A DNA stretch of 64,000 nucleotides from an uncultured archaeon (GCA_964631415.1 CAZVZC010000002.1:28738-92737); one strand, 5' to 3'; counted from the first letter of the stretch, positions 29,172 through 53,316 are shown. Made by a program: numbers and translations. Notes: generated by a model from the sequence alone, not told the origin.

Positions 29172-30650
29172 CTACGGATTGTAGGCGAACGGATGCCGCG
29201 CAGACTCCCTTCTTGCCATGATCTCTTCTACTGACTGCCTTCGCTCTAGCGCGTGGCGTATAGCATATCTCACTGCGCGGAAGTTGTTGTAGAAGACCCT
29301 ACGTGGATTGTTGGCGTTCGGATGCACGAAAACGCTGACCGCAATGATGAGGTCAGGTACTAGCTCCTCAGGAATCATCCTATCCGTGATGGTCCTCGTG
29401 ACAGCATCTGCCACGGCCTTCTGGGCAGTTTCATAGACCATCTTTCTGTGGCGCTCACCTGTGATGGCGACAGTTGATGCGAAGACAGTTGTGGGACGCA
29501 CGTCTTTGACGATGTTCGACGAGTGGAATCCATCGACGAGTTTTCCTGAATTCGCCACCGCGGCTTGGAGTGGTCCATCCTTCAGACCCATCACAAGGTC
29601 GATATGAGCAACTTCAAGCGCCTCACCGCACAGAGCTTCTCCATGAAGAAGTGTGAGATCATCGATGACATCTCTTGTCATTCCTACGGCCTTGGGATAG
29701 GCTTCAGCCACGAGTGAGCGGTTGCCCATCTTGTAGGTCACGGGACCGCGTGGAATGAGCTGAAGGTCCTCGAGGAGAGCTCTCAACTCATCGATCTCAT
29801 CATAAGCCAGCAGATCACCGTCCATCAAGGGCATTCGCGCCTTGCCCACAGGGACTCCCATCATGTTGAGAGCTGCCTTGACCGCAAGGCCTCCACCCTT
29901 TACAAGAACCTTGACTGTCCTTTGGATGCTACGTTGGATGAGCCTCGCTTCCTTCAGGTCGCCCTGAGAGAGGTCGGTCATGATTCTCAAATAACGATCC
30001 AAGAAGACATTCGCGCTCGCCAGTACGGCTCCGTCACAACCCGCTGCAAGTGCAGGCAGTGCAATCTCGTCGTGGCCAACGACAATCTGAAACTCCTCTG
30101 GCCGACGGATTAGAATGCTCATGAGATTGATCATGTCGCCGCTAGAGTCCTTCATCCCAACGATACCGTCAATCTCACGGAGACCATCGACCAGCCACCA
30201 GTCGAGATTGACGCCAGTGACCTGTGGAAAGTTGTAGAGGAAGATTGGCAGTTCGCTAGAGCCTGCCACCTTCTCAAAGTGCTCGTAGATCTCCTTGGTG
30301 GATGGTTTCAGGTAGTATGGTGATATGACAAGGGCCGCAGACGCACCAAGTTCTGCAGCTTTTCGAGTGAGCTTGACGGCATCGTTCGTGTACGCGGCAC
30401 CGGTCCCGGCGAGGACAGGTACACGTCCCTTTGCTGCTTCACACGCGATGCGCAAAGCCTCTAGACGCTCCTCAAAGCTCATGTTTGTGAATTCGCCTGT
30501 CGAGCCACATGGAACAATGCCAGTGGCCCCAGCCTTGATGACATGGTCGATGAGACCCCGGTACTGCTGCTCGTTGACCCCATTCTCGTCGAAGGGTGTG
30601 ACAAGTGCTGGGTACACACCTTTGAACCGCCAAGAACTCCTTGACACCAT
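29172..30650 (-). CDS. DapA/NanA-family class I aldolase fused to a C-terminal formaldehyde-activating enzyme (Fae) domain, copy B
   Basis: GSTGEF, YNFP and GMKDSSG (Schiff-base Lys); C-terminal GEAL.G...EVAHIDL..G, VFVH, HPF Fae motifs; GGAGGTGA SD before ATG 30650. Confidence 0.88.
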   Translation of the reverse strand: MVSRSSWRFKGVYPALVTPFDENGVNEQQYRGLIDHVIKAGATGIVPCGSTGEFTNMSFEERLEALRIACEAAKGRVPVLAGTGAAYTNDAVKLTRKAAELGASAALVISPYYLKPSTKEIYEHFEKVAGSSELPIFLYNFPQVTGVNLDWWLVDGLREIDGIVGMKDSSGDMINLMSILIRRPEEFQIVVGHDEIALPALAAGCDGAVLASANVFLDRYLRIMTDLSQGDLKEARLIQRSIQRTVKVLVKGGGLAVKAALNMMGVPVGKARMPLMDGDLLAYDEIDELRALLEDLQLIPRGPVTYKMGNRSLVAEAYPKAVGMTRDVIDDLTLLHGEALCGEALEVAHIDLVMGLKDGPLQAAVANSGKLVDGFHSSNIVKDVRPTTVFASTVAITGERHRKMVYETAQKAVADAVTRTITDRMIPEELVPDLIIAVSVFVHPNANNPRRVFYNNFRAVRYAIRHALERRQSVEEIMARRESARHPFAYNP

Positions 30651-30652
30651 TG

Positions 30653-32053
30653 TCACCTCCATACCTGACCTAGCGCAGCCGACACTGCATTCTCAGTGGC
30701 GGCAGTAATCGCTCGCCGGTCAATCGCATCCAGATCGACGTCAAGGGCCATCACTATGACTTCTCCATTGATGGCATCCTCAGGTATCTTCCCTGCACGG
30801 AGATGAGTGACCACTGCCTTGGCTGCTCCAGACTGAACCGGGCCGTAGAAGAGCGACGCCTGGCGCAAAGACTCTATCTTCCTAGCAGGCAACATGATAC
30901 TTGTCGGTCGCACTGCAAGGTTGGGCTCTAGAATTACACTTAGAGCCTCATGACCAACTCTGGGCGTCGTCAATAGCTGAACGAACGCCGCACCCAGTGG
31001 ACCGGTCTTGGGCCCGCTGACTATGCTCGCAGCCACAGTCTGGTTCGAGCCCCTCCCAAACTTCAAGCTGCCATGCTGCTGGGCGGTTACTCCAACCTCA
31101 GCAAGAGACGTGGCAATGTCAACATCCTTTGACGGCGGAGTGTGCTTGACACCCTTGAGTAGTCCAAGCTTTTCAAGTTCTACCCGTATCTCATCCTTGA
31201 GTTCAGGAGTGAGTGTTCCCCCCGAGTTGAGAGGCATGCGTGATTTCCCGGCATCGATACCCATCATCTTCAATGCTGCTTTGACAGGTGGAGCACCGCC
31301 ATACCTTGTCACTATGCGAGCTAGGGTCTGCATTGAAAGCTGCAGTCTGGCGGCTCCTTCAATGTCACCCTTCTGCACCTTCTTCATGACATCGAGCCAC
31401 AGGTGGGGCATGATGTTGCCCGAGGCCATGATTGCAGCCCTCACACCTGCCGCGACTGCTGAGAGGAAGCATTCGTCGTGCCCTATGATGACCGGAATAC
31501 GGTCCTTGAGCTTCTGGATGAGTTCGAGAGTGTAGCCTATGTTGCCACTGCTATCCTTGATGCCCACAATGTTGTCAATTTCTGCAAGGTCTTCCACGAC
31601 GTTCGGTTGAAGGATTCCCAGAGTACACTGGGGGATGTTGTAGAGTATGACTGGCAGGTTTCCTTGGTTGGCAACTGCCGCAAAATGCTCGAAGTAGCCC
31701 TTGTCGTTCGGTTTCAAGTAGAACGGAGAAACAACGAGAGCAGCATCACATCCGACCTCAGCTGCGTACCTCGTGAGAGCGATTGTCCCCTTCGTGCTGT
31801 TTTGACCTGTGCCCGCGATCACAGGAACACGGCCATCGACAAACTCGACCGTCAGCTTCAACAGCTTCTTGCGCTCCTCCGTTCGCATGTAGACAAACTC
31901 GCCAGTGGTGCCGGCAGGCACAACGCCTGTTGCACCCTTACTGATGGTGTAATCTATGATTTGACGGAAGCTGTCCTCCATAATGTCACCGTCCTTTGTA
32001 AACGGAGTAACGAGGGCAGGCATCACTCCTTTGGGAACGAACTTCCTTGGCAT
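30653..32053 (-). CDS. DapA/NanA-family class I aldolase fused to a C-terminal Fae-like domain, copy A
   Basis: GTTGEF, YNIP and GIKDSSG; C-terminal GP..GP.G.AF, GHEAL..ILEPNL..RP, FYGPVQ Fae motifs. Confidence 0.88.
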   Translation of the reverse strand: MPRKFVPKGVMPALVTPFTKDGDIMEDSFRQIIDYTISKGATGVVPAGTTGEFVYMRTEERKKLLKLTVEFVDGRVPVIAGTGQNSTKGTIALTRYAAEVGCDAALVVSPFYLKPNDKGYFEHFAAVANQGNLPVILYNIPQCTLGILQPNVVEDLAEIDNIVGIKDSSGNIGYTLELIQKLKDRIPVIIGHDECFLSAVAAGVRAAIMASGNIMPHLWLDVMKKVQKGDIEGAARLQLSMQTLARIVTRYGGAPPVKAALKMMGIDAGKSRMPLNSGGTLTPELKDEIRVELEKLGLLKGVKHTPPSKDVDIATSLAEVGVTAQQHGSLKFGRGSNQTVAASIVSGPKTGPLGAAFVQLLTTPRVGHEALSVILEPNLAVRPTSIMLPARKIESLRQASLFYGPVQSGAAKAVVTHLRAGKIPEDAINGEVIVMALDVDLDAIDRRAITAATENAVSAALGQVWR

Positions 32054-32124
32054 ATTGACTCACCAGATTGTTGAGGCGGGTCTAGACGTTCGTTTATAAA
32101 TCTCAGCTTCCGGATATCCACGCA

Positions 32125-32468: not shown

Positions 32469-34910
32469 TCAAGCAAGGTCTGCCCTTCGCGCAGCGTACT
32501 CAAGTGACTCGTTAAAGTACTTGCCAACCACTACGGCTATTGCTGGTCCGACGATGTTGTTCAATTCGCCAGGCAGAAGCTCCCTCAAATTCGTCTTCGC
32601 TGTGAGCTTCCCCCTCTGTCTCAGGAGCGAAACCTCTCGCTGGACGATTGCTCTGGTCTTGTCCCAAGGCATTGCCTCAGAGGTCGGGCCAATGAGACCA
32701 CTCTTGATGTCAGTGAGAGCCCGCATCACGAACACAGCTAGATTGTCCATGTCATTGCTTGTGGTCATGTCGGACTTGCCATGAGTAGGGCAGACTCCCT
32801 CCTTGGGTGTTTCTCCGCAGACCGAGCACACGAGCCGTCCCCGGTTCACTCTGACATAGTACGATAGAAGATTCGCACATTTCGCATCGTCAACAGGACT
32901 CCACTCGAGTCCTTTGGTGCCGAGACGGCCTATTGCTCTGAAAACAGTGTGGGCCTTTGTGTAAATGAACAAGAGAGGATCGAGTGCCTTCCTCTTACTG
33001 TCAGCAATCCTCTGCTCCTCCAGTTGTGCCTGAACCGCCGCCTCCTCCTTGACCAGCCTCTGGGCACGCTCCTGTTTGAGGAATCGACTCATGAGATCAA
33101 AGGCCACAGCATAGTTGTCGCACTCCAAGCCGCTCATCCCAAGAGGCGTTTCAGCGATCCCCTCAAAAACAGGGCTTGGTGTCGATTCCAAGTCAGAGTC
33201 AGCCATGGCCATGTCTAAGCCTGAGAAGCGTGCATGCAGCCAAGCAGAAACCGCTGGGGTATCGAGCTCAGGGTGCACGCATTTGAACTCCTGGACTCTG
33301 TTTGCCGTCAGATCTATGAGTATCTCCTCACGCAGGTACTGCAGCTCTGTTTCTGTCTTCTCGTAGATGCTTTTCAGAAGGGCCTTTGTTCGCAATAGAT
33401 CCTGCTTCGATCTCACGTAGGTCTCTACAACTCTCGTCAGATTCGTGAACAAGCCAATCATGAAATGCCAGACAATGTCTAGCTTGAGGGAGGCGATAGT
33501 TTCCTCCTGCCGCAGCTGTTGGCCCATTTCATGCGCAGAAGCAGCCCCTGCCTGAGTCGCTCCCGTCCCTTGTAATGACTCTCTTGCTTTGATCAGTCTC
33601 TTGATCTCATCGGGCGGTGGTAGACGGACTCTTTTCTTCAGTTCCTCCACCACTTCGATCTCTATGCCGATTAGACTACCACGATCCTTTGTCAGAAGCT
33701 GGAGTGATATCTTGTCGAGCTCGGCTCCTCTTAGGCCCCGAGAGCGGAGCGCGCCTTTTACTGATCGTTCCAGTGTCTGCTCTATCTTCTCCAGAGTCTT
33801 TAGCGACCTAGTTAGGTCTTCCAAGTCCTCCCTGGAAACACGGTCGGCGGCCTTGCTGGCTGTTGCCCTCCCGAAGGACGCACTTAGTCCGACTGCAAGG
33901 TCTGCGGGTGATGCAATACCTTTCGGCTGTAACGAAACCCGTATGTCTTCAGGGTTCAGTCCCAGCAAGTACCCCAACAGAGTGAATGTGTCAGTAGGGT
34001 TCTTCTCGAATTCCGCCGCTAGTTTCTTCGCCACCACATCAGCAATCCGACTCTCGAAGTCACCAATCGTTGTGGGCGTGTCGATATCTCCCTCGATTGC
34101 ATCAAGGATCGCAATTCTGAGCTCGTGCGCACGTTTCAGCGTCTGTCTGTTTCGCCCTTTGGGCAAGTTGCCAATCACAGCCAGGGCTACTTCGTCCCAG
34201 GTTTCGTCGGTCACACCAGACATCATAAGCCGGGCAGTGAGACATGTTGGTCTTCTGAGTAGACGCGCAATCCCACGCTTCAGAATGGAGGTTTCCGGGA
34301 CCTCCTCCTCATGCTCCCTAAGAAGCTCTTCCCTGAGTGACATTGATGACTCCTTCAGACCGGACGCCTTAGCATAGATGTCACTCCTCCACACCGGGCC
34401 CCAGCCCGTCACTTCGTTCACGAAGTCGATATCATGATTGCCGGCATACTCTCGAGGCAGCTTGCTCAGGTGACTCTTCAGCTGAGCCACGACTCGCTTG
34501 ACTGTCTGAGGCTCCGAGGCATTAGTATCGTCTACGATTTCACAGAGTGCAATTAAGAACTCGCTGACAAGTCTGGCTCGGTCGAGTTCCTCCCTCTGCT
34601 TGTTGCCGAGAATCTGTCGGACCTCCAGTTCCAGAAGTCGGCGGGACTCTTTCTCTGTGTCACTCTTCTGTTCGATTGTCAGCTGCCCGCCTGCGGTGTT
34701 CTGCCTGACGTGGACGTCTTGGTAGTTAACAAGGTAGAAAGCAGAGAAGAATGAAAGAAGGTCCTCAAGAGGTCGACGGTCCGCAAGGATTTCTGCAACC
34801 ATCTGCCTGTCACGTGGGCTCCGCATATGCGTGGCCAATGCCTCTCTCAGAAGTATCTCTTTGCCCGCCTCACTCATCTGACGTGTCCTTAGAATCCAAG
34901 CACTCGACAC
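32469..34910 (-). CDS. Large alpha-helical hypothetical protein with a C-terminal CxxC-x8-CxxH zinc finger
   Basis: 813-aa ORF; CSVCGETPKEGVCPTHG; starts 4 nt after the upstream gene's stop, with a GAGGTGA SD. Confidence 0.8.
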   Translation of the reverse strand: MSSAWILRTRQMSEAGKEILLREALATHMRSPRDRQMVAEILADRRPLEDLLSFFSAFYLVNYQDVHVRQNTAGGQLTIEQKSDTEKESRRLLELEVRQILGNKQREELDRARLVSEFLIALCEIVDDTNASEPQTVKRVVAQLKSHLSKLPREYAGNHDIDFVNEVTGWGPVWRSDIYAKASGLKESSMSLREELLREHEEEVPETSILKRGIARLLRRPTCLTARLMMSGVTDETWDEVALAVIGNLPKGRNRQTLKRAHELRIAILDAIEGDIDTPTTIGDFESRIADVVAKKLAAEFEKNPTDTFTLLGYLLGLNPEDIRVSLQPKGIASPADLAVGLSASFGRATASKAADRVSREDLEDLTRSLKTLEKIEQTLERSVKGALRSRGLRGAELDKISLQLLTKDRGSLIGIEIEVVEELKKRVRLPPPDEIKRLIKARESLQGTGATQAGAASAHEMGQQLRQEETIASLKLDIVWHFMIGLFTNLTRVVETYVRSKQDLLRTKALLKSIYEKTETELQYLREEILIDLTANRVQEFKCVHPELDTPAVSAWLHARFSGLDMAMADSDLESTPSPVFEGIAETPLGMSGLECDNYAVAFDLMSRFLKQERAQRLVKEEAAVQAQLEEQRIADSKRKALDPLLFIYTKAHTVFRAIGRLGTKGLEWSPVDDAKCANLLSYYVRVNRGRLVCSVCGETPKEGVCPTHGKSDMTTSNDMDNLAVFVMRALTDIKSGLIGPTSEAMPWDKTRAIVQREVSLLRQRGKLTAKTNLRELLPGELNNIVGPAIAVVVGKYFNESLEYAARRADLA

Positions 34911-34914
34911 ATGA

Positions 34915-37590
34915 TCACCTCAGGAAGTTGCTGCCCAAGCGAACAGTCATCTCATCGCCATGATAATCGTAGGTCACCAAGTAGACTAGGCCTGGAAACT
35001 CTGGGTCTGTCAGATAGACCCGTGTCGCGCGAGGCAACAGTCTGCCGATGCTCCTTATTGCTGAACCCATCAGATACTCGAGAAACTCCTCATTGATGCT
35101 GACAGTTGACTCACCCGTGACTCGCGCGCGCTCAGCCTTCAGCCTTTGCAGGTGTTGGGAAATCAGCTTCTCCAATTCCTGCTCTCTTTTTCCCATCTCA
35201 TCCAGCTTGGCCGTCAACAGATCTCGCAGCTTGGCGCTTGTGATTAGATTCTGTGAGGGCTCCGGTTTCACCGGGAGCGGTTTGACCACCAGTAGTGGAA
35301 ACTCAAGATCCACTTTGCGAAGCCGCGTTTCGAGGGACTCAGGAGGTGCTACAGACACACGGGGGCCCTCATCTGGTGGCACCACAGTCTGTTCACCGAC
35401 TTCCGGCTTGGGTTCGACCTGTTTCGGAGAAGCCTCGTACTCAGCGGACTCTCGCCCGTAGTCGACCTTTGCCTGCTCGAGAAGTCTTTGTCGCTTTTCA
35501 TTGTGCTGCCGGATACCGTCGTTTTCTGCCTCTGTCAGCAAGCAGATCTGTTTCCACTGCTTCAAGTCCTGCTCATGCGTCCTCTGAAGATGGTCCGCCT
35601 CAGACTTGACTCGATCCAGTATTGACTGGGATGACATGCGTAGTCCAACGTTATCGTGAACATAGCGAGCAAAAGCTATTAGATTGGAGTGATAATCAGC
35701 TGTGCCTTTCATACCGCCGAACGCATCCTCGATCAAATGCAATGCCTCAGCCCTCCACTCACGGGACCTATCACCAAACGACTGGACTGCCCTTGTTAGC
35801 TCGGTCTTTAGGTCAGCGCCCGCAGTGCCCATTGCATCAAGGACTTGGCTGAGGAAGGGTCTTGCAAGGACTGTTCCGGCGATATTCGGTGATATATCAC
35901 GAACGAGCGCCTCTAGAGTGGACAGCCTTTCCATCAGGGTCTTGCCTTCTGAGTCAATTGCCGCTTCCTGGGCCGCACCTGGAATTGTTTGTTTGCTTAT
36001 GACTTCCGATCTGGCAATCTGTGCTGTGTCACTGAATGATATCAGATCCGACACATCAAGATTGTCGAAACCCTCAATCATGGCATCTATGGCGACGTCC
36101 ATGAGCTGTGCAGGCGTCTTCATCTTCACACCCTCGAATGCCGCCCTGTCAAAAGCGGCATTCAACATCGAGTACAGTTCGGCGATGAACTTGTGAAACA
36201 GCATCAGATCAGTAGGACTCGTGTCGCGACCGGTCAGTTCTTGACGAAAAGCGACAATCGCATTGAGTACTGCCTTTCGTGACAACGTAACGACGAGGAA
36301 TCTACGAAACTCCTCAGCAAAGTACTGAGCGACCTTCCTTGCATATGTGACGAAATACCTCAATGTCCCCTTAAGCTGCCAAGCTCTAGCTTCTTCTCCT
36401 TGAGGGATGGTACGTCCGACAGAGTCCATCATATGGTCCAAGAGTCTGATAAGCATCTTCAGAGCGACCTCGCCACCACGACCCGTCAAGTTCTTGGCCT
36501 TGACCGTGAGTATTTTGACAAGTGCGTCTCTGTGGCCAGTCGACAAGAGAGCCAAGCCAGAAGAAATGTGCTGTTCTACAGCTTCACTTAAGACATCGAC
36601 AGACTTGGCGACCAGCTCAGCAAAGCTGTTCGCTTGGTCCATTACCTTATCGAGCTCACTCGCCTTGACACTGTCTCGGCCAATATACTCAACAAGCGCT
36701 CCGATGACTGTTGTCGCGATGTTGACTTCCTCGCTGCTGTATGCGTAAGCATTCAGCTCGCCAAGTATGGTCCTGCCGATCTCTGGAATGTGAGTGACAA
36801 GGGTTTCAATGGCATTCGGAGTCATGATACGATGTCTGAAATGCTGGCTGAGTGCTGCGGGCTCGGCCTTTGGAAGGACCAGCTGGAGCTCCCAGGGCTT
36901 GAGGACCCTCAGACCAGGAGGCATCGAGCTGAAGTCCTTCCGGCACTTCGCCTTCACAACAGCCTCCAGATCGATATCGTCAGGTTTGATACTCATAGTA
37001 GTATATGAAGTCTGAAACTGGCGGTCCAACATGTCAACAAACATTACTCTGTTGAACCTGTCAGCAAAATGGCGAAGGACTGCCAATCCCTCGCGGTCAT
37101 AATCAAGACCGCTGCTCAGGATGGCAACCTCTATGTCAGCCATCTTCTTTGTCAGTCGTCTGATGTTAGCGTCCACCTTGAAGGGATCCACGATACCCCT
37201 TTCCCAGGTTAGCATACATGCATGAGAACTCACTTCACCAACGGAACTGCCTGCCACGACTAGTTGTTCTGGTAGAAGCTCAGAACTTGGCGCTCGTTCC
37301 AGGTCCCATATGAGTGACAGAAGCTCTAGGCCTTCGGATTGTCTCAACGAATCTCGCACAGAGAAGACAAGTGGTGCGACATTCATAGCCACAGTCTCAG
37401 AGTTCTCTTCCATCATGCTGCCTAGCCCGACAGCTGCGCCGACCGGAAGACCGCGAGTAGTTGTGGAACCCAACACTGAAACGGACGCCATCCGGATGGC
37501 TTCGACTGTACTAGTAACGGTGGTCTTGGCCTTGCCAGTTGCAGACATGACTCTACCTCCAGCTCTGAGCCACCGTTCGAGTTGGCTCAC
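34915..37590 (-). CDS. Large hypothetical protein (helical/coiled-coil, beta-rich termini)
   Basis: 891-aa ORF, apparently operonic with 32469-34910. Confidence 0.8.
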   Translation of the reverse strand: MSQLERWLRAGGRVMSATGKAKTTVTSTVEAIRMASVSVLGSTTTRGLPVGAAVGLGSMMEENSETVAMNVAPLVFSVRDSLRQSEGLELLSLIWDLERAPSSELLPEQLVVAGSSVGEVSSHACMLTWERGIVDPFKVDANIRRLTKKMADIEVAILSSGLDYDREGLAVLRHFADRFNRVMFVDMLDRQFQTSYTTMSIKPDDIDLEAVVKAKCRKDFSSMPPGLRVLKPWELQLVLPKAEPAALSQHFRHRIMTPNAIETLVTHIPEIGRTILGELNAYAYSSEEVNIATTVIGALVEYIGRDSVKASELDKVMDQANSFAELVAKSVDVLSEAVEQHISSGLALLSTGHRDALVKILTVKAKNLTGRGGEVALKMLIRLLDHMMDSVGRTIPQGEEARAWQLKGTLRYFVTYARKVAQYFAEEFRRFLVVTLSRKAVLNAIVAFRQELTGRDTSPTDLMLFHKFIAELYSMLNAAFDRAAFEGVKMKTPAQLMDVAIDAMIEGFDNLDVSDLISFSDTAQIARSEVISKQTIPGAAQEAAIDSEGKTLMERLSTLEALVRDISPNIAGTVLARPFLSQVLDAMGTAGADLKTELTRAVQSFGDRSREWRAEALHLIEDAFGGMKGTADYHSNLIAFARYVHDNVGLRMSSQSILDRVKSEADHLQRTHEQDLKQWKQICLLTEAENDGIRQHNEKRQRLLEQAKVDYGRESAEYEASPKQVEPKPEVGEQTVVPPDEGPRVSVAPPESLETRLRKVDLEFPLLVVKPLPVKPEPSQNLITSAKLRDLLTAKLDEMGKREQELEKLISQHLQRLKAERARVTGESTVSINEEFLEYLMGSAIRSIGRLLPRATRVYLTDPEFPGLVYLVTYDYHGDEMTVRLGSNFLR

Positions 37591-43117: not shown

Positions 43118-45019
43118 CTACGAGCTTGTCGAACGACTACGTGTCCACTCTAGCGCTAGCCTTCGGACTGTCTCCTGAGTAGGCAATCCCGTTGTTTCGT
43201 CCCAGCCTCGTAACCTGTAATAGTCATTGAGCATGGGTTCTAGGTTGACCCTCTGACCTTTCCCAGGTCCCTCTGGCATCGGATCAACAGTGAAACGTTT
43301 CGGAAGGGTGTCGTCCTTCCGGCTTATTCCCTCTCGTGCGTTGAAAAGGCGCTTCAGAGTCACCTGCCGCTCTGCAATCTCTATCAGGTTCTTTATCTCT
43401 CCAAAGTGACTCACTCCGGTCAGGACAGGCAGCATCTGTGCGAAGTCCTCCATCCAGAAGATTGGCGGCCATGACACAGAGTACCAGCACACAATTAGAG
43501 CATCACGAATACAGTACGTGTTCTCAGTCTCGACGACAGCTGCGGCTTTGTACTTCTCAGTGTACGGGTCCACTATCTCTGGGAGTTTGTCGCGACCCCA
43601 CCTCTTGGCGGCAACCTCTTGATAGCCCAGCTGATCGACAGTGACAAGACTCCTGAGGTGGTCAGCCCCTCGAGCGGCGGTGGCATGAGATAGGCCGATA
43701 CTCCTGTGAGTTCGCCCGTCCTGACCGGAGACCTCGAGTCCCTTGACATGGATGGCAAACTGTTCAGAACCACGCCCTATTCTCCGAGAGGCCTCCCGGC
43801 TCCCTTCCGCCAATAAGTCCCCGAAGCCTGTCCTGTTGCCAATCATATCGAGCAGCTGTAGGGCCTGTTCACTGTTGCCCCACTCAAGGTCGATACCGCC
43901 GGTCATCTTGCTGTCAATCAAGCCATTCTGAAAAGCTTCGGTGGCAAAGGCGATGCAGGACCCGGCTGAGATCATATCTATGCCAAACCTGTTGCAGATC
44001 TGATTGGCTCTGAGAGCAGTTGGAAAGTCTGAGATTCCCAGAAGGCTCCCGAATGCCATCAGACCTTCATACTCAGGGCCTTCTTCAAGAGTGCCAGCGT
44101 AAGGACCTTCACGAACGTAGTTTACTTTCTTGCAGCCAAGACTACAGCCGAAACATGCCCTGTCCCCAATAGTGTATCTGGGTCTGATGTAGTCGCCACT
44201 GAGCTTTTCCCAACCTGAGAAGACACCTGTGCGGTGATTGTATGTCGGGAGTTCGCCTATTGTCTGCTTGACAGCAGTGAGGACCCATGTACCATACTTG
44301 TGCATCTGCTGGGCCTGAGGATTCTGCCTGACTCTCCTGTGGGCATCCTTTGCCAGTTCTACAAAATGCTCATGGTCGCTGACCTCGATCCCTTGGTGAC
44401 CTCGAACTGCGATTGCTTTCACGTTCTTCGACCCAAGGACCGCACCCATACCCGTTCTGCCCGCCGCACGAGCGTTGTTCACTATTATCGATGCAAAACG
44501 GACACATCGTTCTCCCGCAGGACCTATAGCTGCAACTTGGACATCTGGGTCATTGTGCTTGCTCCGGATTGCAGCTGACACCTCATCAGTCTTCAACCCC
44601 CAGAGATCAGATGCATTGATTATCTCAAGATCTTGGTCATGAATGCTGACATAGACGGGCTTTTCGGCGCGACCCTCAATCACTAGAGCATCGTACCCGG
44701 CATACTTCAGCTCTGGTCCAATGAAGCCTCCAACATGAGATTCGCCCCATATGCCCGTCAGAGCTGCCTTGGAAACGAACACGGTTCTGCCACTCATTGG
44801 CCATAGCGTCCCAGTCACTGGGCCGGTCGCCAGTATCAGCTTATTCTTCTCGCCGAGTGGGTCAGTCTTTGCTGGCACTTCATCATACAGGATTCTGGCC
44901 GCAAACCCGTCGCCACCAATGTACTCGTGGACCCACTCAATCGGCAGTGGCTCGACTCGGAAGTCGCCCCTGTTGAGGTCGGCCCTTAGTATTCTGCCTG
45001 CATAGCCTCCGGGCTTCAA
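43118..45019 (-). CDS. aor: Tungsten-dependent aldehyde:ferredoxin oxidoreductase family protein
   Basis: AAGRTGMGAVLGSKNVKAI, CFGCSLGC, GPEYE, DDTLP.RF, YY.LRGWD. Confidence 0.95.
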   Translation of the reverse strand: MKPGGYAGRILRADLNRGDFRVEPLPIEWVHEYIGGDGFAARILYDEVPAKTDPLGEKNKLILATGPVTGTLWPMSGRTVFVSKAALTGIWGESHVGGFIGPELKYAGYDALVIEGRAEKPVYVSIHDQDLEIINASDLWGLKTDEVSAAIRSKHNDPDVQVAAIGPAGERCVRFASIIVNNARAAGRTGMGAVLGSKNVKAIAVRGHQGIEVSDHEHFVELAKDAHRRVRQNPQAQQMHKYGTWVLTAVKQTIGELPTYNHRTGVFSGWEKLSGDYIRPRYTIGDRACFGCSLGCKKVNYVREGPYAGTLEEGPEYEGLMAFGSLLGISDFPTALRANQICNRFGIDMISAGSCIAFATEAFQNGLIDSKMTGGIDLEWGNSEQALQLLDMIGNRTGFGDLLAEGSREASRRIGRGSEQFAIHVKGLEVSGQDGRTHRSIGLSHATAARGADHLRSLVTVDQLGYQEVAAKRWGRDKLPEIVDPYTEKYKAAAVVETENTYCIRDALIVCWYSVSWPPIFWMEDFAQMLPVLTGVSHFGEIKNLIEIAERQVTLKRLFNAREGISRKDDTLPKRFTVDPMPEGPGKGQRVNLEPMLNDYYRLRGWDETTGLPTQETVRRLALEWTRSRSTSS

Positions 45020-45020
45020 C

Positions 45021-45518
45021 TCAACTCTCTCCGCCAGACTCGTGCGTCTGCCCAGTCCGTCTGATCTCTCTCAGGTAGCCTGTGATCTTGTCGTGTCTAC
45101 TCAGGACTGATGCTTGGGCGGCCGATGCATACTGAATGGCACCCGTTGGGCACGCCTTTGCACACTCCGGGTCGCCACCACAATGGTCGCACTTCAGAAT
45201 TCGCATACGGGAGGTGTCAAGCCGGATGACGCCGTTCACGCAGGCTCCTGCGCAGGACTTGCATAGGATGCACTTGTCTTCGTCAAGATAGGTCATCTTC
45301 GAAGTGGGATCCCGCCGCATCGCATAGACTGGGCATACTTCAACGCAGGGTGCTTCCTCGCAAGGGCCGCACACATTGGGAATGTCTATGCCTAGGTCAT
45401 CATATCTGATTACTTTGAGCCGGGCAAGACTGGGCCGAAAGACACCTTCTTTCTTCGCAGAACATGCGAGCTCGCATATTCTGCAACCGGTGCACTTCGT
45501 TTGGTCAACGATCAGCAT
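45021..45518 (-). CDS. 4x[4Fe-4S] DmsB-like electron-transfer protein (start uncertain)
   Basis: CTGCRICELAC, CGPCEEAPCVEVCP, CILCKSCAGAC, KCDHC..PECAKACP. Confidence 0.9.
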   Translation of the reverse strand: MLIVDQTKCTGCRICELACSAKKEGVFRPSLARLKVIRYDDLGIDIPNVCGPCEEAPCVEVCPVYAMRRDPTSKMTYLDEDKCILCKSCAGACVNGVIRLDTSRMRILKCDHCGGDPECAKACPTGAIQYASAAQASVLSRHDKITGYLREIRRTGQTHESGGES

Positions 45519-45596
45519 TGAAGGCAGCGTGTCCACCTCATCTAACATGCCCGTACACAGAGTCACGCTAAAAGCTTCCTGCTCTGTGCGTGTCGG

Positions 45597-46670
45597 TCAT
45601 ACGCTCAAGACCCAACCGTAGCTGTCCCGTTTCTCTCCACATTGTATCCCAAGTATCTCATCGTATAGCCTTCGAGTCAGATCCCCTGTCTTGCCACCGT
45701 TTATCACATGTGCCTTCCCCTGATATGAAAGCTCACCGATAGGTGCTATTATGGCTGCAGTACCTGCGCCGAAAACCTCTCTCACCGTTCCGGACTTAAT
45801 CCCTTTCAGAAGCTCATGGATAGATATCCGCCGCTCGCTGACCTTCAACCCCCAGTCACGAGATATTCGTAGAACGGAGTCCCTAGTTATACCGGGCAGT
45901 ATGGTCCCGTCTAGTGGAGACGTAGCGAGTTCATCCTTGAACTTCACGAACACATTCATTGTACTGGTTTCTTCGATGTATTCCCGCTCGAGCGCATCCA
46001 GCCATAGGACTTGCGAATAGCCCTGGTCCGCTGCCTCCTTTCCAGCCAACAGACTTGCAGCATAGTTGCCAACTGTCTTGGAGAAGCCAATGCCGCCGCG
46101 TACGGCCCTCACGTACTTCTCTGAAACCAACAGCTTCACAGGGTCGAAGCCTTCTTTGAAATATGGACCCACCGGGCTCAGAATGATGAAGAAAAGGTAC
46201 TCAAGTGAAGCCCGGACTCCGAGCTTTGGCTCAGTCGCTATCATTGTTGGCCTGATATAGAGTGAGGTCCCGGGGATCTCCGGTATCCAGTCGCGCTCGA
46301 TCCGTATGAGCTCTGTCAAACAGTCTAGAACGAAGTCAATGTCGACATCCGGCATGACTATTCTTTTCGCTGAGGCGTTGAGCCGCAGGATGTTGTCACG
46401 AGGCCTGAAGAGGTACACGTTCCCCTTCCTTCGATAGGCCTTCATGCCCTCGAACACGCCCTGACCATAATGAAGGCACATTGCGGCGGGATTCAGAGAC
46501 AAGGGCTGAAAGGGACCTATCCCCGGGTCAGTCCACTGACCTCCTTGATAACTCATTGTGAACATGTGGTCAGTGAAGGTTGTGCCAAACTCCAGCTTGA
46601 GCGGGTCAGCCGGCTTCTGCTTCCTCTGTCCGGGGGGTAGGAGTTCCACTTTCAGATTCATCACCCTCAC
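45597..46670 (-). CDS. ilvE: Branched-chain amino acid aminotransferase
   Basis: LHYGQGVFEGMKAY, SLYIRP, K..GNYA, ILPGITR. Confidence 0.95.
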   Translation of the reverse strand: MRVMNLKVELLPPGQRKQKPADPLKLEFGTTFTDHMFTMSYQGGQWTDPGIGPFQPLSLNPAAMCLHYGQGVFEGMKAYRRKGNVYLFRPRDNILRLNASAKRIVMPDVDIDFVLDCLTELIRIERDWIPEIPGTSLYIRPTMIATEPKLGVRASLEYLFFIILSPVGPYFKEGFDPVKLLVSEKYVRAVRGGIGFSKTVGNYAASLLAGKEAADQGYSQVLWLDALEREYIEETSTMNVFVKFKDELATSPLDGTILPGITRDSVLRISRDWGLKVSERRISIHELLKGIKSGTVREVFGAGTAAIIAPIGELSYQGKAHVINGGKTGDLTRRLYDEILGIQCGEKRDSYGWVLSV

Positions 46671-47457: not shown

Positions 47458-47643
47458 TGATTGGGTCCACAGAAAGTCGAGAGGAGCAGCGGAATCGAGA
47501 TTCCGACGACCAACTCACAATTCGCTTTGGTGGACTTGAGCGCAAGTCTGCGCATTCAACGGGCCGAGCTGGACACATCACCAACCGAACCATTAATATC
47601 CTATTTCACCACGGTCCCGCCAGAAATCGGAGGAAGACAAACC

Positions 47644-48906
47644 GTGTCAAGTTCTGGATTCAATCCATGGGAGGCTGTTTTGACCCAACTGCGGACTGCT
47701 GCTGAGGCCATCAAGCTGGATGGAAACATACTCAAGATACTTGAGAAGCCGGACAAGATACTAATAACGTACTTCCCCGTTATCATGGACGATGGACACC
47801 TTGAGATGTTCGAGGGGTACAGAGTGCAGCATTCGCACCATCGAGGACCATGCAAGGGTGGAATCCGATATTCGCCCGACCTGAGCCTCGACGAAGTGAA
47901 AGCCTTGGCTGCACTAATGACATGGAAGACCGCTGTCGTGAATATCCCTTTTGGCGGCGCCAAAGGAGGAGTTGTGTGTGATCCGTGGAAGCTTAGTCTT
48001 GGAGAGCTCAAGCGGATGACACGGAGATTCACTTACAGCCTGATCAACATGATTGGCCCAGAGTCCGACATACCTGCACCTGACGTAAACACAAACTCTG
48101 AGGTTATGTCGTGGATGCTTGATACATACTCTATGATTACCGGCCACACTGAGCTCAGTGTTGTGACGGGCAAGCCAGTGGAAATCGGCGGTAGTATCGG
48201 CAGAACGGAAGCGACAGGAAGAGGGCTGTTCTATGTGATGGAGGAGGCTTTGAAACAGAGAGGTCGAAGCACGAGAGGAATGCAGGTTGCTGTGCAGGGC
48301 TTTGGCAACGTAGGCAGTTACTTCTGCCGATTCGCTCATCAGGCAGGCTACAAGGTGGTAGCTGTTACCGACGCCTTTGGCGGAGTCTTCAGCCCGAACG
48401 GGCTTGATATCCCGAAGCTCATCGAGTATTCCTCGAAACATCCTAAGAGATCAGTTGCGGGCTTCCCGGATGCAGACACCATGACTAACGAGGAGCTCTT
48501 CGGACTCGATGTGGATGTTCTCGCCCCCTGTGCCATGGGCGATGCCATCAACGAGAGGAATGCGGATTCTGTGAAGGCCTCACTAGTAGTTGAAGGAGCG
48601 AACGGCCCGACCACTCCGGAAGCTGATGCAATTCTGTCAGAAGAAGGAATAACAGTAGTCCCAGACATTCTTGCCAACGCTGGCGGTGTGACAGTTTCCT
48701 ACTTTGAGTGGGTTCAGGGACTACAGCACTTCTTCTGGAGCGATCAACAGGTCAATCAGGCGCTCCGCGATATCCTTGTCAGAGCCTTCAACGAGGTCAA
48801 CAAGACGGCAACGGATTTCAACATCAGGAATCTCCGAACTGCTGCCCTCGCATTGGCTGTGGGACGGGTAGCAAAGGCAATAGAACTGAGGGGCATATTC
48901 CCATAG
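47644..48906 (+). CDS. gdhA: Glutamate dehydrogenase 1
   Basis: GPCKGGIRY, MTWK, GGAKGG, PAPDVNT, GRTEATG, GFGNVG; GTG start after GGAGG. Confidence 0.93.
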   Translation: MSSSGFNPWEAVLTQLRTAAEAIKLDGNILKILEKPDKILITYFPVIMDDGHLEMFEGYRVQHSHHRGPCKGGIRYSPDLSLDEVKALAALMTWKTAVVNIPFGGAKGGVVCDPWKLSLGELKRMTRRFTYSLINMIGPESDIPAPDVNTNSEVMSWMLDTYSMITGHTELSVVTGKPVEIGGSIGRTEATGRGLFYVMEEALKQRGRSTRGMQVAVQGFGNVGSYFCRFAHQAGYKVVAVTDAFGGVFSPNGLDIPKLIEYSSKHPKRSVAGFPDADTMTNEELFGLDVDVLAPCAMGDAINERNADSVKASLVVEGANGPTTPEADAILSEEGITVVPDILANAGGVTVSYFEWVQGLQHFFWSDQQVNQALRDILVRAFNEVNKTATDFNIRNLRTAALALAVGRVAKAIELRGIFP

Positions 48907-49104
48907 TCACTCATGTGTCAGTGGCTCGACTACTGCAGAATCTCTATGCGATGAATCTGGCTGGCCTGTGCACAACAGCACTGTCGGTGCCATTTGGATG
49001 CTGATTGGCGCCTCCTAGTGAATGCACGAAGCGGTCAGATTCATCCTTCCTGTGAGAGGCATGGCAAGCCTGTACCAGCTGGTACCGCGGATTGTCAGGA
49101 AAGA

Positions 49105-49134
49105 CTGGTGGACCATCCGAATGGATGGTCCCAG
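49105..49134. terminator. GC hairpin between convergent gdh genes (possible terminator or processing site)
   Basis: GGACCATCC (49110-49118) - GAAT - GGATGGTCC (49123-49131). Confidence 0.45.
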
Positions 49135-49141
49135 AAGAATT

Positions 49142-50410
49142 CTACGGAAATAGACCACGTAGTTGCATGACTGAGGCGATTCTGCCAACAGCGAGCATGA
49201 ACGCCGCAGTCCTCATATGGACGGTTTCTTTCTTAGAGAGCTCATAGACTTCCCGGAATGCTTTCATGATCCGTGCCTCGAGTTTGGCATTCACCTCTTG
49301 CTCAGTCCAGTACTCTCGTCTAAGGTTCTGAAGCCACTCGAAGTAAGAAACTGTCACACCGCCAGCGTTGGCAAGAATGTCGGGGACAACGAAAGTGCCA
49401 GCTTCGAAGAGAATGTCGTCGGCTTCAGGTGTCGTAGGACCATTTGCCCCTTCTACAACTATCTTCGCATTCACTGAAGAAGCATTGGCTGCCGTTATCT
49501 CGTTCTCCAGAGCGCAGGGAAACAGGAAGTCAACGTCGAGTTCGACCACCTTGTCAATTGGTATTTGTCTGGCTCCGGGGTAGCCTTTCACAGACCCGGT
49601 TCGTGCCTTGAAGTCACCGACCTTTCGAGCATCGAGTCCATCGGGATTGTAGATTGCGCCTTGAGAGTCACTACACGCAACGATTCTCATGCGAAGATCT
49701 GCTGCCAGCCAAGCTGAGTTGTAGCCGACATTTCCGTACCCGGTCACTGCAACAGTGGAGCCCTCCAGTTTTGTACCTGTTACCTTGGCCGCCTCTCTGG
49801 CACATATGACCACACCCCTCGATGTGGCCTCGTTCCGACCCAGGGACCCACCAAGTGCAATCGGTTTACCTGTCACAACTCCGGGCTCCGCAATCCCTGC
49901 TATTGCGCCATAGGTATCCATTATCCACGCCATTGTCTGAGGGTTTGTGTTGACGTCGGGAGCCGGAATGTCCCTCAATGGGCCAATAATGGAACTGATC
50001 TCTGATGTGAACCTGCGGGTCAGCCTTTCGAGCTCGGCACTGCTCATCTCTTTGGGATTACAGACAATCCCACCCTTGGCACCGCCGTATGGTATGTCCA
50101 CGACTGCCGTCTTCATAGACATCCATGTGGCAAGTGCCTTGACCTCATCAAGATTCACCTGAGGACCATAGCGAATACCTCCCTTGAAGGGGCCACGCGC
50201 GTCGTTGTGCTGGACTCTATAACCGCGAAACACGCGCAGCTGACCATTGTCCATTCTTATTGGAACTGACACCTCCAAGACACGCTTAGGCTGTTTGATG
50301 ATTTCGATGATGCCAGGGTCGATTTTCATCCGCTTCGCAACGATGTCAATCTGATGCTGAGCGATTTCGAATGGGTTGTTCGTTGTACTACGATGTGTTT
50401 CCTCTTCCAA
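49142..50410 (-). CDS. gdhA: Glutamate dehydrogenase 2
   Basis: GPFKGGIRY, MSMK, GGAKGG, PAPDVNT, GRNEATS, GYGNVG; TTG start after GGAGG. Confidence 0.93.
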   Translation of the reverse strand: MEEETHRSTTNNPFEIAQHQIDIVAKRMKIDPGIIEIIKQPKRVLEVSVPIRMDNGQLRVFRGYRVQHNDARGPFKGGIRYGPQVNLDEVKALATWMSMKTAVVDIPYGGAKGGIVCNPKEMSSAELERLTRRFTSEISSIIGPLRDIPAPDVNTNPQTMAWIMDTYGAIAGIAEPGVVTGKPIALGGSLGRNEATSRGVVICAREAAKVTGTKLEGSTVAVTGYGNVGYNSAWLAADLRMRIVACSDSQGAIYNPDGLDARKVGDFKARTGSVKGYPGARQIPIDKVVELDVDFLFPCALENEITAANASSVNAKIVVEGANGPTTPEADDILFEAGTFVVPDILANAGGVTVSYFEWLQNLRREYWTEQEVNAKLEARIMKAFREVYELSKKETVHMRTAAFMLAVGRIASVMQLRGLFP

Positions 50411-50751
50411 CTTCGCGTTCCTCCATTGGAACATGCTCTGGAAAGGCATTCGCGCGTTGATGCTCCGACTATTAAACACTGACGGTCGTCTGACAACTGT
50501 GGATAAAACGACTCACTCTTTTTGTGAAGTTATGCCATCGCGTGACGGATAAGGGTCTGAATGTGTCGTTCCTGACAAAACCCTATGTACTGAATTGCCA
50601 CAGTGGTGTAGCTTGGGAACACAACCAAGTCAACACAGTTCGTGGCCCATCTTGGCTTCATGGCAGCACGACTCATCTCAGCTCTGCTTCCTGTCTTGCC
50701 AAGAGGTAGAACTGGAACCTGCCCCTCACACATAGTTGGCTTGCTGTATAT

Positions 50752-51834
50752 CTAGCGGGCCGGTTTTAGCAGCTCCCTAAGCTTCCTACCCTTGTACATC
50801 TCCATTCTCTTGCGAACGAACATCAAAGCGACTATCCTGTGACTGAAGAGGATGGTCATGCGAGGGGTGAGGTATGTAACATTGGCACCTCCGAAGGCGC
50901 TAGGGAATCTTTCTCTGTAGCCATCGTCCCATTTCAGATAGTCGCCAATACTGTAGTGGTTGCCAAGCAGAAGGAGATTGTACCTGCCTTGCACTGTCCT
51001 AAAAGCAACAGGAACATGCGGGTCGACCATGATATCGCGCATGATCTTTTCCGATTGTTTCTTTACTTCGACCAATGAGAGGGTCAGCATGCAATCTGGA
51101 GGAACGAAGTAACTGGGGAAGCTGCAAACCGGGCGAGCGATGTACCCTTCGTCCATCAGCGAGGCAATCCGCTTTTCAACCGTCTTTCGATGCAAGCCGG
51201 TCTTCTTACATAGATGAGCCTCATTGATCTTGAGGCCAACTCCCGAACATAGACAATTCAGTATCTTGAAGTCTAGATCATTGAGCATGAACCCGCCGTT
51301 ATTGTTAGTACCGTTTATTCGAGCCTTTTCAATCATGAGAGCCAATCCAGAAGACGGTTCGTGCTTGATCGTTAGCTCGTTTGAGTGGTAGAATGAACTC
51401 GAAAGAAATGATGTAAGTTCCTCAGGGATATTGTACTCTGTCCTCATGACTGACGGAAGTGATTCTCTCCAGCGGAGATAGCTTGTCAGGTTCTCATGGT
51501 ATAGGAAGAGCAGGGTGTTGAAATCAGACTGTCTGGTTCGGAAGGCTGCGAATATGTATGGGTCTTCTCTTATCCACTTCTCGAACCGGACGTCATCTGG
51601 AGCCTCGAGATAAAGAATCACGAACAGCGGATAGACCTTGCCCAATCCGACGAATGGAACGTATGGAGTATCCAGAATCCCATTGTCAATTATGGCCTTG
51701 ACTCTGCCCATAATCGTGTGCCTGTGATGACCCAGTTCGCGAGAGAGCTCGCTAAGGTTTACACGTACAGCATCCCCGGACAACAACTCCTCTAGGATTA
51801 CTAGATTGTTCTTGTCAGCTAGAAGATCTGGCAC
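50752..51834 (-). CDS. Internally duplicated Lrp/AsnC-like transcription regulator
   Basis: Two HTH+RAM-like units: NLSELSRELGHHRHTI..DPYIFAAFRT and NEAHLCKKTGLHRKTV..DPHVPVAFRT. Confidence 0.7.
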   Translation of the reverse strand: MPDLLADKNNLVILEELLSGDAVRVNLSELSRELGHHRHTIMGRVKAIIDNGILDTPYVPFVGLGKVYPLFVILYLEAPDDVRFEKWIREDPYIFAAFRTRQSDFNTLLFLYHENLTSYLRWRESLPSVMRTEYNIPEELTSFLSSSFYHSNELTIKHEPSSGLALMIEKARINGTNNNGGFMLNDLDFKILNCLCSGVGLKINEAHLCKKTGLHRKTVEKRIASLMDEGYIARPVCSFPSYFVPPDCMLTLSLVEVKKQSEKIMRDIMVDPHVPVAFRTVQGRYNLLLLGNHYSIGDYLKWDDGYRERFPSAFGGANVTYLTPRMTILFSHRIVALMFVRKRMEMYKGRKLRELLKPAR

Positions 51835-52089
51835 GCGACGGATGCCTCCGTGACATAATTAATACTTTCGCGTAGATGCAATGCCGGAAATGTCAGAAGA
51901 CCGGCGGCGCTGCTGGGTGATATTCTTTACACATAGAATCTGGGGGAATGGTACGCAAGTGCACTCTCTGTGGCCCGATTGTACGCTTTCTGACACCACG
52001 GCTTGTCTGTGGGTCCGCCGGCCTTAAGTGTATTCCACTTGCCCGAAAAATCACAAGCTCTTGTAAACAACCCAAAGGAGCTAGAGAAC

Positions 52090-53316
52090 ATGGCAACATT
52101 GAAAGATGCATCGACAGAAGTCCAATCGCAGCAGCTGGCTATGCTCGAGCGCATGCTCGAGGATGTTAACATTGCTGCTTTCAGTGACAAATGGGGCCCT
52201 GAGAAGGTCATTCGTGTCTATGACCCACAACTCGGGATGGAAGGAATCCTTATCATAGACAACACCGCCCTAGGTCCCGGTAAGGGCGGATTCAGAATCA
52301 GAGCAGGCCTCACTCCACTTGAGGTGTTTGGTCTGGCCAGAACCATGACGTGGAAGTGCGCGCTTGCCAATCTTCCTTTCGGGGGAGCGAAGGGAGGAAT
52401 AAGTGCAGATCCCTATTCGATCGATAAGCAATCATACGTCAGAGCATTCGCGAAAGCGGTTTCGGCTCATGTACCAAACGAGTGGGTTTCTGCACCGGAC
52501 ATGAATGTCGGTGAGGAAGAAATCGCCGCCTTCGTTGAAGTGATTGGTGACAGGAAGGCCGCCACAGGAAAACCAGAGAGAATGGGAGGAATACCGCACG
52601 AGCTCGGAACGACTGGATTCGGACTTGGAGTCACCATAGAAACAACCCTGAGCATGCTATCCGAATTCGTGCCAATCAAAGACACAGTTGATGGTCTAAC
52701 CGTCGCAGTCCATGGATTCGGAAATGTCGGGTCAGAGGTTGCTAAGTATCTCTCCCGAAAGGGTGCGAAAATCGTGGCTATAGGAGACTATTGGGGAGGA
52801 GCTTACAACTCAAAGGGCATTGACATTGATCAGGCAATGAAACATGCTTACGCAACCGATGATGCGCACTCCTGCAAGCACTGCAAAGGGGCCAAAGAGA
52901 TTGGCAGGGACGATGTCCTCGAAGTGGAATGTGATGTACTGATACCAGCAGCAGTCGGAAACGTCATCACAGAGCGGAACGCGTCCAAGGTGAAGGCCGG
53001 ACTCATTGTCGAAGGTGCAAACAACCCGACAACATCAGCAGGCGAAGAGATACTCTTCAAGAGGGGAATCCTGGTGCTCCCGGACATGCTGGCTAACGCG
53101 GGAGGTGTGATAGGCTCCTACGCTGAGTATCTTGGCAAGAATATCGATGAGGCATTTGCAATGATTGATGCCAAGATTAGGGAGAACACAAAGCTAGTCC
53201 TGAGCAGCTCGATTAGCGGTGATGTCGTGATGCTTCCGAGGGCTGTCGCATTGATGATTGCCAAGGAGAGGGTCCTGAAGGCAACCGAGCGACGCATGAA
53301 CAAGGGGAGTCATTGA
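52090..53316 (+). CDS. Glu/Leu/Phe/Val dehydrogenase family protein (divergent third copy)
   Basis: DNTALGPGKGGFR, MTWKCA, GGAKGG, APDM, GFGNVG, EGANNP; AGGAG SD before ATG 52090. Confidence 0.9.
   Translation: MATLKDASTEVQSQQLAMLERMLEDVNIAAFSDKWGPEKVIRVYDPQLGMEGILIIDNTALGPGKGGFRIRAGLTPLEVFGLARTMTWKCALANLPFGGAKGGISADPYSIDKQSYVRAFAKAVSAHVPNEWVSAPDMNVGEEEIAAFVEVIGDRKAATGKPERMGGIPHELGTTGFGLGVTIETTLSMLSEFVPIKDTVDGLTVAVHGFGNVGSEVAKYLSRKGAKIVAIGDYWGGAYNSKGIDIDQAMKHAYATDDAHSCKHCKGAKEIGRDDVLEVECDVLIPAAVGNVITERNASKVKAGLIVEGANNPTTSAGEEILFKRGILVLPDMLANAGGVIGSYAEYLGKNIDEAFAMIDAKIRENTKLVLSSSISGDVVMLPRAVALMIAKERVLKATERRMNKGSH

Follow-up and report, generated by a model that had tools for sequence, protein, structure and literature searches.

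Paired aldolase-Fae fusion genes of a Thorarchaeota archaeon: probable subunits of one enzyme and a candidate 4-hydroxy-2-oxobutanoate aldolase

Two adjacent genes in a 64,000-nucleotide stretch of archaeal DNA (the window) encode proteins, A and B, in each of which a DapA-family aldolase barrel is followed by a Fae-like domain. Homologues of A and B identify the host as a Thorarchaeota archaeon. We found that the Fae active site is divided over the two genes, and A and B are probably a split heteromer with shared halves of this site. The enzyme would interconvert 4-hydroxy-2-oxobutanoate (HOB) with pyruvate and methylene-pterin; judging from sequence and gene context, we consider this reaction somewhat better than an even bet. 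The family itself is real, conserved, misannotated and uncharacterised. A literature search retrieved no paper describing a fusion of Fae with a DHDPS-type barrel, and queries combining Fae, DapA and Bathyarchaeia returned generic mentions of fae only.

The gene pair and its aldolase barrels

As the first-pass annotation had described, both fusion genes lie side by side; they are on the minus strand (Table 1), and in profile searches both domains exceeded the Pfam cut-offs in each product: DHDPS at 1e-77 (residues 8-277) and Fae at 8.5e-26 (residues 340-461) in A, and DHDPS at 1e-72 and Fae at 9e-33 (residues 341-492) in B. The two proteins are 37% identical. The fusions are not a product of chance because more than 110 full-length homologues with both domains were found for A, and more than 110 for B. 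Three longer DapA-family proteins from the representative search, P0261 (757 aa), P0264 (616 aa) and P0334 (600 aa), may be other fusions or tandem barrels. The start of B is more likely at 30650, 2 nt past the stop codon of A, since a putative Shine-Dalgarno sequence, GGAGGTGA, precedes this position and P0003, the closest homologue of B (492 aa; 95% identity across the searched C-terminal part), begins at the same Met. Through the overlap of GGAGGTGA with the A stop codon, translation of A and B may be coupled. The candidate TATA box, TTTATAAA, lies between A and the divergent cutA gene, at distances of 40 nt from A and 24 nt from cutA.

Table 1. Positions of the gene pair, its putative signals, other window features and the partner gene c1 (residue numbers of B follow the 496-aa frame)
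Feature	Position	Strand	Description
ORF A (subunit A)	30653-32053	-	466 aa; DapA-family barrel and half Fae domain
ORF B (subunit B)	29172-30662	-	496 aa as longest frame; DapA-family barrel and half Fae domain
Subunit B from likely start	29172-30650	-	492 aa
GGAGGTGA, putative Shine-Dalgarno sequence	30653-30660	-	overlaps A stop codon; 2 nt upstream of likely B start
TTTATAAA, archaeal TATA-box candidate	32093-32100		self-complementary; read from sequence
c1 of own genome	G000:C41:1561-2826 (L080:1555-2970)	-	on another contig than the pair; 67% identity
Two large ORFs	32469-37590		813 and 891 aa
Very large ORF	1-9776		>3200 aa; signal-peptide-like start; runs off the window end; probably a large surface protein
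AOR and ferredoxin subunit	43118-45566		next to the dehydrogenase-like genes
Branched-chain aminotransferase-like gene	45597-46670		next to the dehydrogenase-like genes
Three clustered glutamate/amino-acid dehydrogenase-like genes	47461-53316

The neighbours of the pair in the window (cutA, an ArgE/DapE deacylase, AlaX and the two large ORFs) were considered as pathway partners and set aside, as their synteny is confined to Thorarchaeota. The two large ORFs are conserved upstream of the pair across this group and had no Pfam match above the cut-off.

Both chains have an intact Schiff-base set. The motifs reported earlier, YNIPQCT and YNFPQVT together with G.KDSSG, were found as described, with the Schiff-base lysine in place; the catalytic residues are T49/T50, Y112, Y138 and K166 in A, and Y117, Y143 and K171 in B. 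The aldolase catalytic set is conserved across relatives, K171 being retained in 96% of B homologues. A and B share with the pyruvate aldolases of the DHDPS/NAL class I superfamily (DapA, the KDX-KDG aldolases YagE/YjhH, NanA and HOGA) the PF00701 barrel, GxTGE, the Tyr133 equivalent and the Tyr-Lys Schiff-base machinery; however, they differ from these enzymes in lacking Arg138, in their GHDE and ASAN/ASGN pocket motifs, and in the Fae domain. Scores were under the cut-offs of the NanA, KdgD, KDG aldolase and HpaI models.

The databases label these proteins dapA because both pass the corresponding equivalog cut-off (TIGR00674; 231.9 for A and 223.2 for B vs. 206.15). A role as true DHDPS in lysine biosynthesis would also be in line with the best solved relatives of A and B, which are DHDPS, and with the own genome (85% complete), where A and B are the only DapA-family genes. 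They are also its only Fae matches. In true DHDPS, Arg138 binds aspartate semialdehyde. Where solved DHDPS read YNVPGRS or YNVPSRT, A and B have Cys or Val, and the Arg138 equivalent is missing from all 141 fusion proteins, which carry Cys, Val, Ala, Thr or Leu instead. In addition, DapB was detected in none of the 86 genomes of the own Thorarchaeota family, matches to the Asd family were found in 17 of them with weak scores, and the own genome (85% complete) yielded no Hsd, DapB or Asd match. The lysine assignment is thus extremely improbable, and the earlier claim that A and B are not lysine-biosynthesis enzymes is upheld.

A Fae site divided over two genes

The first-pass annotation treated A and B as two self-sufficient fusions; the distribution of Fae residues suggests, rather, complementary subunits of one enzyme. 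The Fae domain of A keeps the ILEPNL loop (GHE-L--ILEPNL) and the R-Q-x5-YGP-Q helix (112 A homologues compared) and is devoid of GEAL, the catalytic His and the HPF tail. The domain of B keeps GEAL, H353, D355, FVHP, NN and RHPF (112 B homologues) and is devoid of the EPNL loop and GP-Q. His353, which corresponds to the catalytic residue of Fae, His22, is retained in 99% of B homologues, along with D355, FVHP and RHPF. Neither A nor B contains a complete site (His22 segment, EPNL-type loop, GP-Q helix and HPF tail) in a single chain. Both domains score above the PF08714 gathering threshold (91.3 for A and 114 for B vs. 27); under the Fae equivalog model, with a cut-off of 118, A falls below (82.6) and B is barely above (119.5).

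Among the fetched loci, both Fae halves are present in 62 single-gene fusions, whereas 41 A-type and 38 B-type proteins have one half each; no protein lacks both. Single-gene fusions occur in Borrarchaeum, Atabeyarchaeum, Promethearchaeota and many Bathyarchaeia; A/B-type pairs occur in Thorarchaeota, Baldrarchaeum, some Bathyarchaeia, Thermoplasmata and Chloroflexota. In an unrooted tree of the aldolase domain alone, a branch sets off each of the three types, namely A (98/85), B (100/96) and the single forms (93/90), and the A/B pair is consistent with an origin from one old duplication. The prediction of a complex between the Fae domains of A and B scored 0.81, compared to 0.15 for the best control, with at least 83% contact agreement between runs and partner pLDDT of at least 83; the mark applied here was reached by 58 of 80 solved pairs and by 2 of 110 mismatched pairs. 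It should be noted that, because a Fae oligomer has been solved, similarity to it may account for the score of 0.81. In the modelled interface, residues 374-382, G404, P405 and Q407 of A meet residues 340-344, H353, D355 and 488-491 of B, and FVHP and NN are absent from the named contacts.

Compared with solved Fae (PDB 1Y5Y/1Y60; PF08714, TIGR03126), B gave an alignment spanning the entire chain (E 8e-19), in which His22 is conserved. In known Fae, a homo-oligomer, every chain contains both halves of the site, whereas A and B have one half per chain and possibly a carrier other than H4MPT. The Fae oligomer is a pentamer. A and B would form one hetero-oligomeric enzyme, probably A2B2, and this arrangement would resolve the conflict between the tetrameric state of DapA and the pentameric state of Fae. 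The architecture is a variant of the design known from Fae-Hps (NF009833; methanogens and other archaea), where an aldolase is likewise fused to Fae and formaldehyde is caught as methylene-pterin. A and B resemble Fae-Hps in working but are not members of that family: they score 62.7 and 91.3 against its cut-off of 274 and contain no Hps (OMP-decarboxylase-type) domain. Their aldolase is an N-terminal class I DapA barrel putatively acting on a 2-oxo acid, whereas Hps is a C-terminal, metal-dependent sugar-phosphate enzyme; moreover, unlike in Fae-Hps, two genes each encode a part of the Fae site. In Asgard archaea, most genomes with the single fusion also have a second, stronger Fae match.

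Partner genes and the proposed reaction

Two genes, c1 (~427 aa, 22 loci) and c2 (~316 aa, 15 loci), recur beside the fusion and never together; c1, or its distant homologue c2, was found there in Asgard archaea, Bathyarchaeia, Thermoplasmata and Chloroflexota. The two match weakly (225 aligned columns, E 0.004), and both model as TIM barrels, that of c2 being U32-like without the Fe-S cysteines. Neither has an NCBIfam or PDB-sequence match; fold searches returned generic TIM barrels only (best Z 12.6), with no listed fold prominent, and Atlas naming gave U32-like for c2 (share 17-23%) and none for c1. The c1 protein, a U32-like TIM barrel and probably the key enzyme of the proposed pathway, is 53-82% identical across archaea and bacteria; 227 of 400 Asgard genomes carry it. 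In Thorarchaeota, the pair and c1 are not neighbours; c1 is found in 78 of 85 genomes of the family, a count equal to that for Fae. In the largest Asgard family, where the genes are adjacent, c1 and the fusion occur together in 77 genomes, each alone in 4, and neither in 50. Next to c1 in the own genome are genes for an ECF S component and for a threonine-synthase-like protein that is extended at its C-terminus.

The surroundings of c1 comprise three alternative modules. Among 118 c1 loci, many of which are close kin and thus not independent samples, the fusion lies within 3.5 kb in 60, homoserine dehydrogenase (Hsd) in 19, and both in one. The Hsd-bearing loci mostly also carry an aminotransferase and AOR. 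Two Asgard families without Fae (0/31 and 0/22) carry c1 (24/31 and 20/22), and the c1 loci read in them contain all or part of an Hsd-type operon, i.e., c1, a class I aminotransferase, homoserine dehydrogenase above its equivalog cut-off, and AOR; no Mch was detected in nine tested genomes of these families. This operon, observed in the Fae-less Asgard families and in unassigned metagenome contigs (L081, L082, L096, L136 and L160), is a candidate homoserine/HOB catabolic route. In Chloroflexota, a distinct PanB clade stands beside c1 in 11 of 18 c1 loci, all 11 in genomes that lack Fae; the two genomes that do have Fae show no PanB next to c1. An amino-acid dehydrogenase is found at two further c1 loci. 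Members of this clade (L155, L208-L223) are mostly 69-80% identical to each other and 42-46% identical to Thorarchaeota PanB, and the clade is a candidate pyruvate hydroxymethyltransferase. Its residues at E. coli positions 202, 212 and 214, which we take to be donor-pocket sites, are larger; we do not count this as evidence. The homoserine-to-C1 route engineered by Bouzon reportedly used PanB, too.

We propose HOB as the substrate because the three modules (the fusion; Hsd, aminotransferase and AOR; the PanB variant) meet at this compound, which is the keto acid of homoserine, a product reachable by PanB from pyruvate and C1, and the aldol of pyruvate and formaldehyde. The substrate suggested in the first-pass annotation thereby gains support from the gene context of c1, as a putative activity; it should be noted that this assignment is a triangulation in which related genomes are not independent. 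HOB is one transamination away from homoserine (PMC9792984), and the DapA-family aldolases YagE/YjhH cleave KDX, its next-larger homologue (PMC13279387). In a Pseudomonas putida screen, PanB partly supported HOB formation from formaldehyde, and YjhH and DapA had no HOB aldolase action in vivo (bioRxiv 2025.02.17.638773).

In the proposed mechanism, HOB would form a Schiff base on the barrel lysine (K166 in A, K171 in B) and undergo retro-aldol cleavage to pyruvate and formaldehyde. Formaldehyde and a reduced pterin would then condense at the single Fae site, composed of the A loop and the B half with His353, as in the modelled contact, and this capture would pull the otherwise uphill cleavage. 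HOB would be supplied by the unlinked, conserved c1, possibly from the keto acid of methionine (by methanethiol loss) or from tetronic acid (by dehydration, a step used in engineered routes; PMC13279387). We consider cleavage appreciably more probable than synthesis because the Hsd operon contains AOR without aspartokinase or Asd, because a transporter and dehydrogenase cluster surrounds c1 in Polaromonas, and because Thorarchaeota use peptides. Synthesis, the less likely direction, would fit two Chloroflexota loci where genes for aspartokinase and Asd converge on c1, and the threonine-synthase-like gene near c1 in Thorarchaeota.

Pterin carrier, alternative readings and meaning

The first-pass annotation named H4MPT as the carrier, which is doubtful in the split-pair lineages. 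In the own genome (85% complete), Mch was found, and Mtd, Ftr and MptG had no match; FolD and PanB are present. Within the Thorarchaeota family, Mch is near-universal (80/86; the control, Haloferax, matches as well) and the H4MPT-synthesis gene mptG near-absent (1/86), which casts doubt on the H4MPT pathway commonly ascribed to this group. According to a preprint of 2018, Thorarchaeota have both carriers (bioRxiv 374165). Non-Asgard pair carriers had Mch in 3 of 18 and mptG in 2 of 19 genomes; single-fusion genomes had mptG in 3 of 4 tested, a small sample. Because mptG is scarce in pair carriers, and Mch in the non-Asgard ones, while the own genome has FolD, the split site may use folate, and the Thorarchaeota carrier is somewhat more likely to be folate than H4MPT.

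The scarcity of these genes (most pair carriers are without MptG, and most non-Asgard carriers without Mch) would also fit non-catalytic Fae-like domains, serving as a pterin-binding regulator or as a holder of the heteromer beside barrels that are ordinary 2-keto-3-deoxy acid aldolases, and so would the equivalog scores of A and B. However, we regard this as very unlikely, given the near-invariant His353 with D355, FVHP and RHPF, the complete Fae of the single-gene relatives, and the alternative partner PanB, a methylene-pterin transferase. The alternation of PanB with the fusion pair beside c1 in Chloroflexota could, in turn, indicate the same architecture and chemistry with another 2-oxo acid, for example, a PanB substitute acting on ketopantoate (2-oxoisovalerate + formaldehyde) or on another 3-substituted HOB. 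Ketopantoate is the natural product of PanB. Conversely, Thorarchaeota retain canonical PanB (76 of 86 genomes, including the own one), together with PoK and CoaBC homologues, in addition to the pair; pantoate would not account for the operons with homoserine dehydrogenase, and DapA-family barrels are pyruvate-donor enzymes. This substrate is unlikely.

DapA-family members of the NahE or KDX-dehydratase kind catalyze hydration, dehydration or elimination. The DapA barrel might perform such a step on a 2-oxo acid, while c1 or c2 is the formaldehyde-releasing aldolase: the nearest folds of c2 include class II aldolases and methylisocitrate lyase, distant c2 relatives lie in biosynthetic and sugar-acid clusters (the latter without another annotated aldolase) where c2 itself could be the aldolase, and the AOR of the Hsd operon could oxidize formaldehyde. 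However, Fae is fused to the DapA barrel and not to c1, c1 next to PanB would be redundant, and the fold matches are weak (10-16% identity), so that this assignment is decidedly unlikely. Two plasmid loci are of interest with respect to c2. On a Mycobacterium plasmid (L182:9241-12407), an apparently broken c2 homologue directly precedes the genes for acetaldehyde dehydrogenase and 4-hydroxy-2-oxovalerate aldolase, so that here, too, the gene lies upstream of an aldolase for a 4-hydroxy-2-oxo acid; on an Enterobacter plasmid (L179:8901-16686), a c2 homologue is part of what is probably a biosynthetic cluster (phosphotransferase, oxidoreductase, aminotransferase, iron redox enzymes and MFS).

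Returning to HOB cleavage by the A/B heteromer, a broader and more tentative proposal, to which we give less than an even chance, is a natural, widespread HOB catabolic pathway in abundant sediment archaea and in Chloroflexota, in which c1 would make HOB, the fusion, the PanB variant, or the aminotransferase with Hsd and AOR would dispose of it, and the split Fae site would use folate. If it exists, this pathway would be new; current papers describe HOB as non-native or non-natural (PMC8879981, PMC13279387). The engineered HOB routes (the homoserine cycle, in which RhmA/GarL serves as HOB aldolase, and homoserine-to-C1, Bouzon 2017) share with our proposal the equation of HOB with pyruvate and C1; however, they employ promiscuous enzymes, whereas A/B is proposed as a dedicated natural one. 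HOB aldol cleavage is central to engineered formaldehyde assimilation, which relies on weak promiscuous aldolases, and a dedicated HOB aldolase with built-in formaldehyde capture would, if true, be a useful part. Two annotation traps are corrected, namely, dapA read as lysine synthesis and fae read as formaldehyde detoxification via H4MPT. The A/B pair would be a clear example of duplicated genes that divide an active site at an interface between them. If the proposed reaction is true, it would also connect pyruvate and the aspartate family with pterin C1 metabolism in a way so far unrecognised in Asgard archaea, Bathyarchaeia and Anaerolineae.
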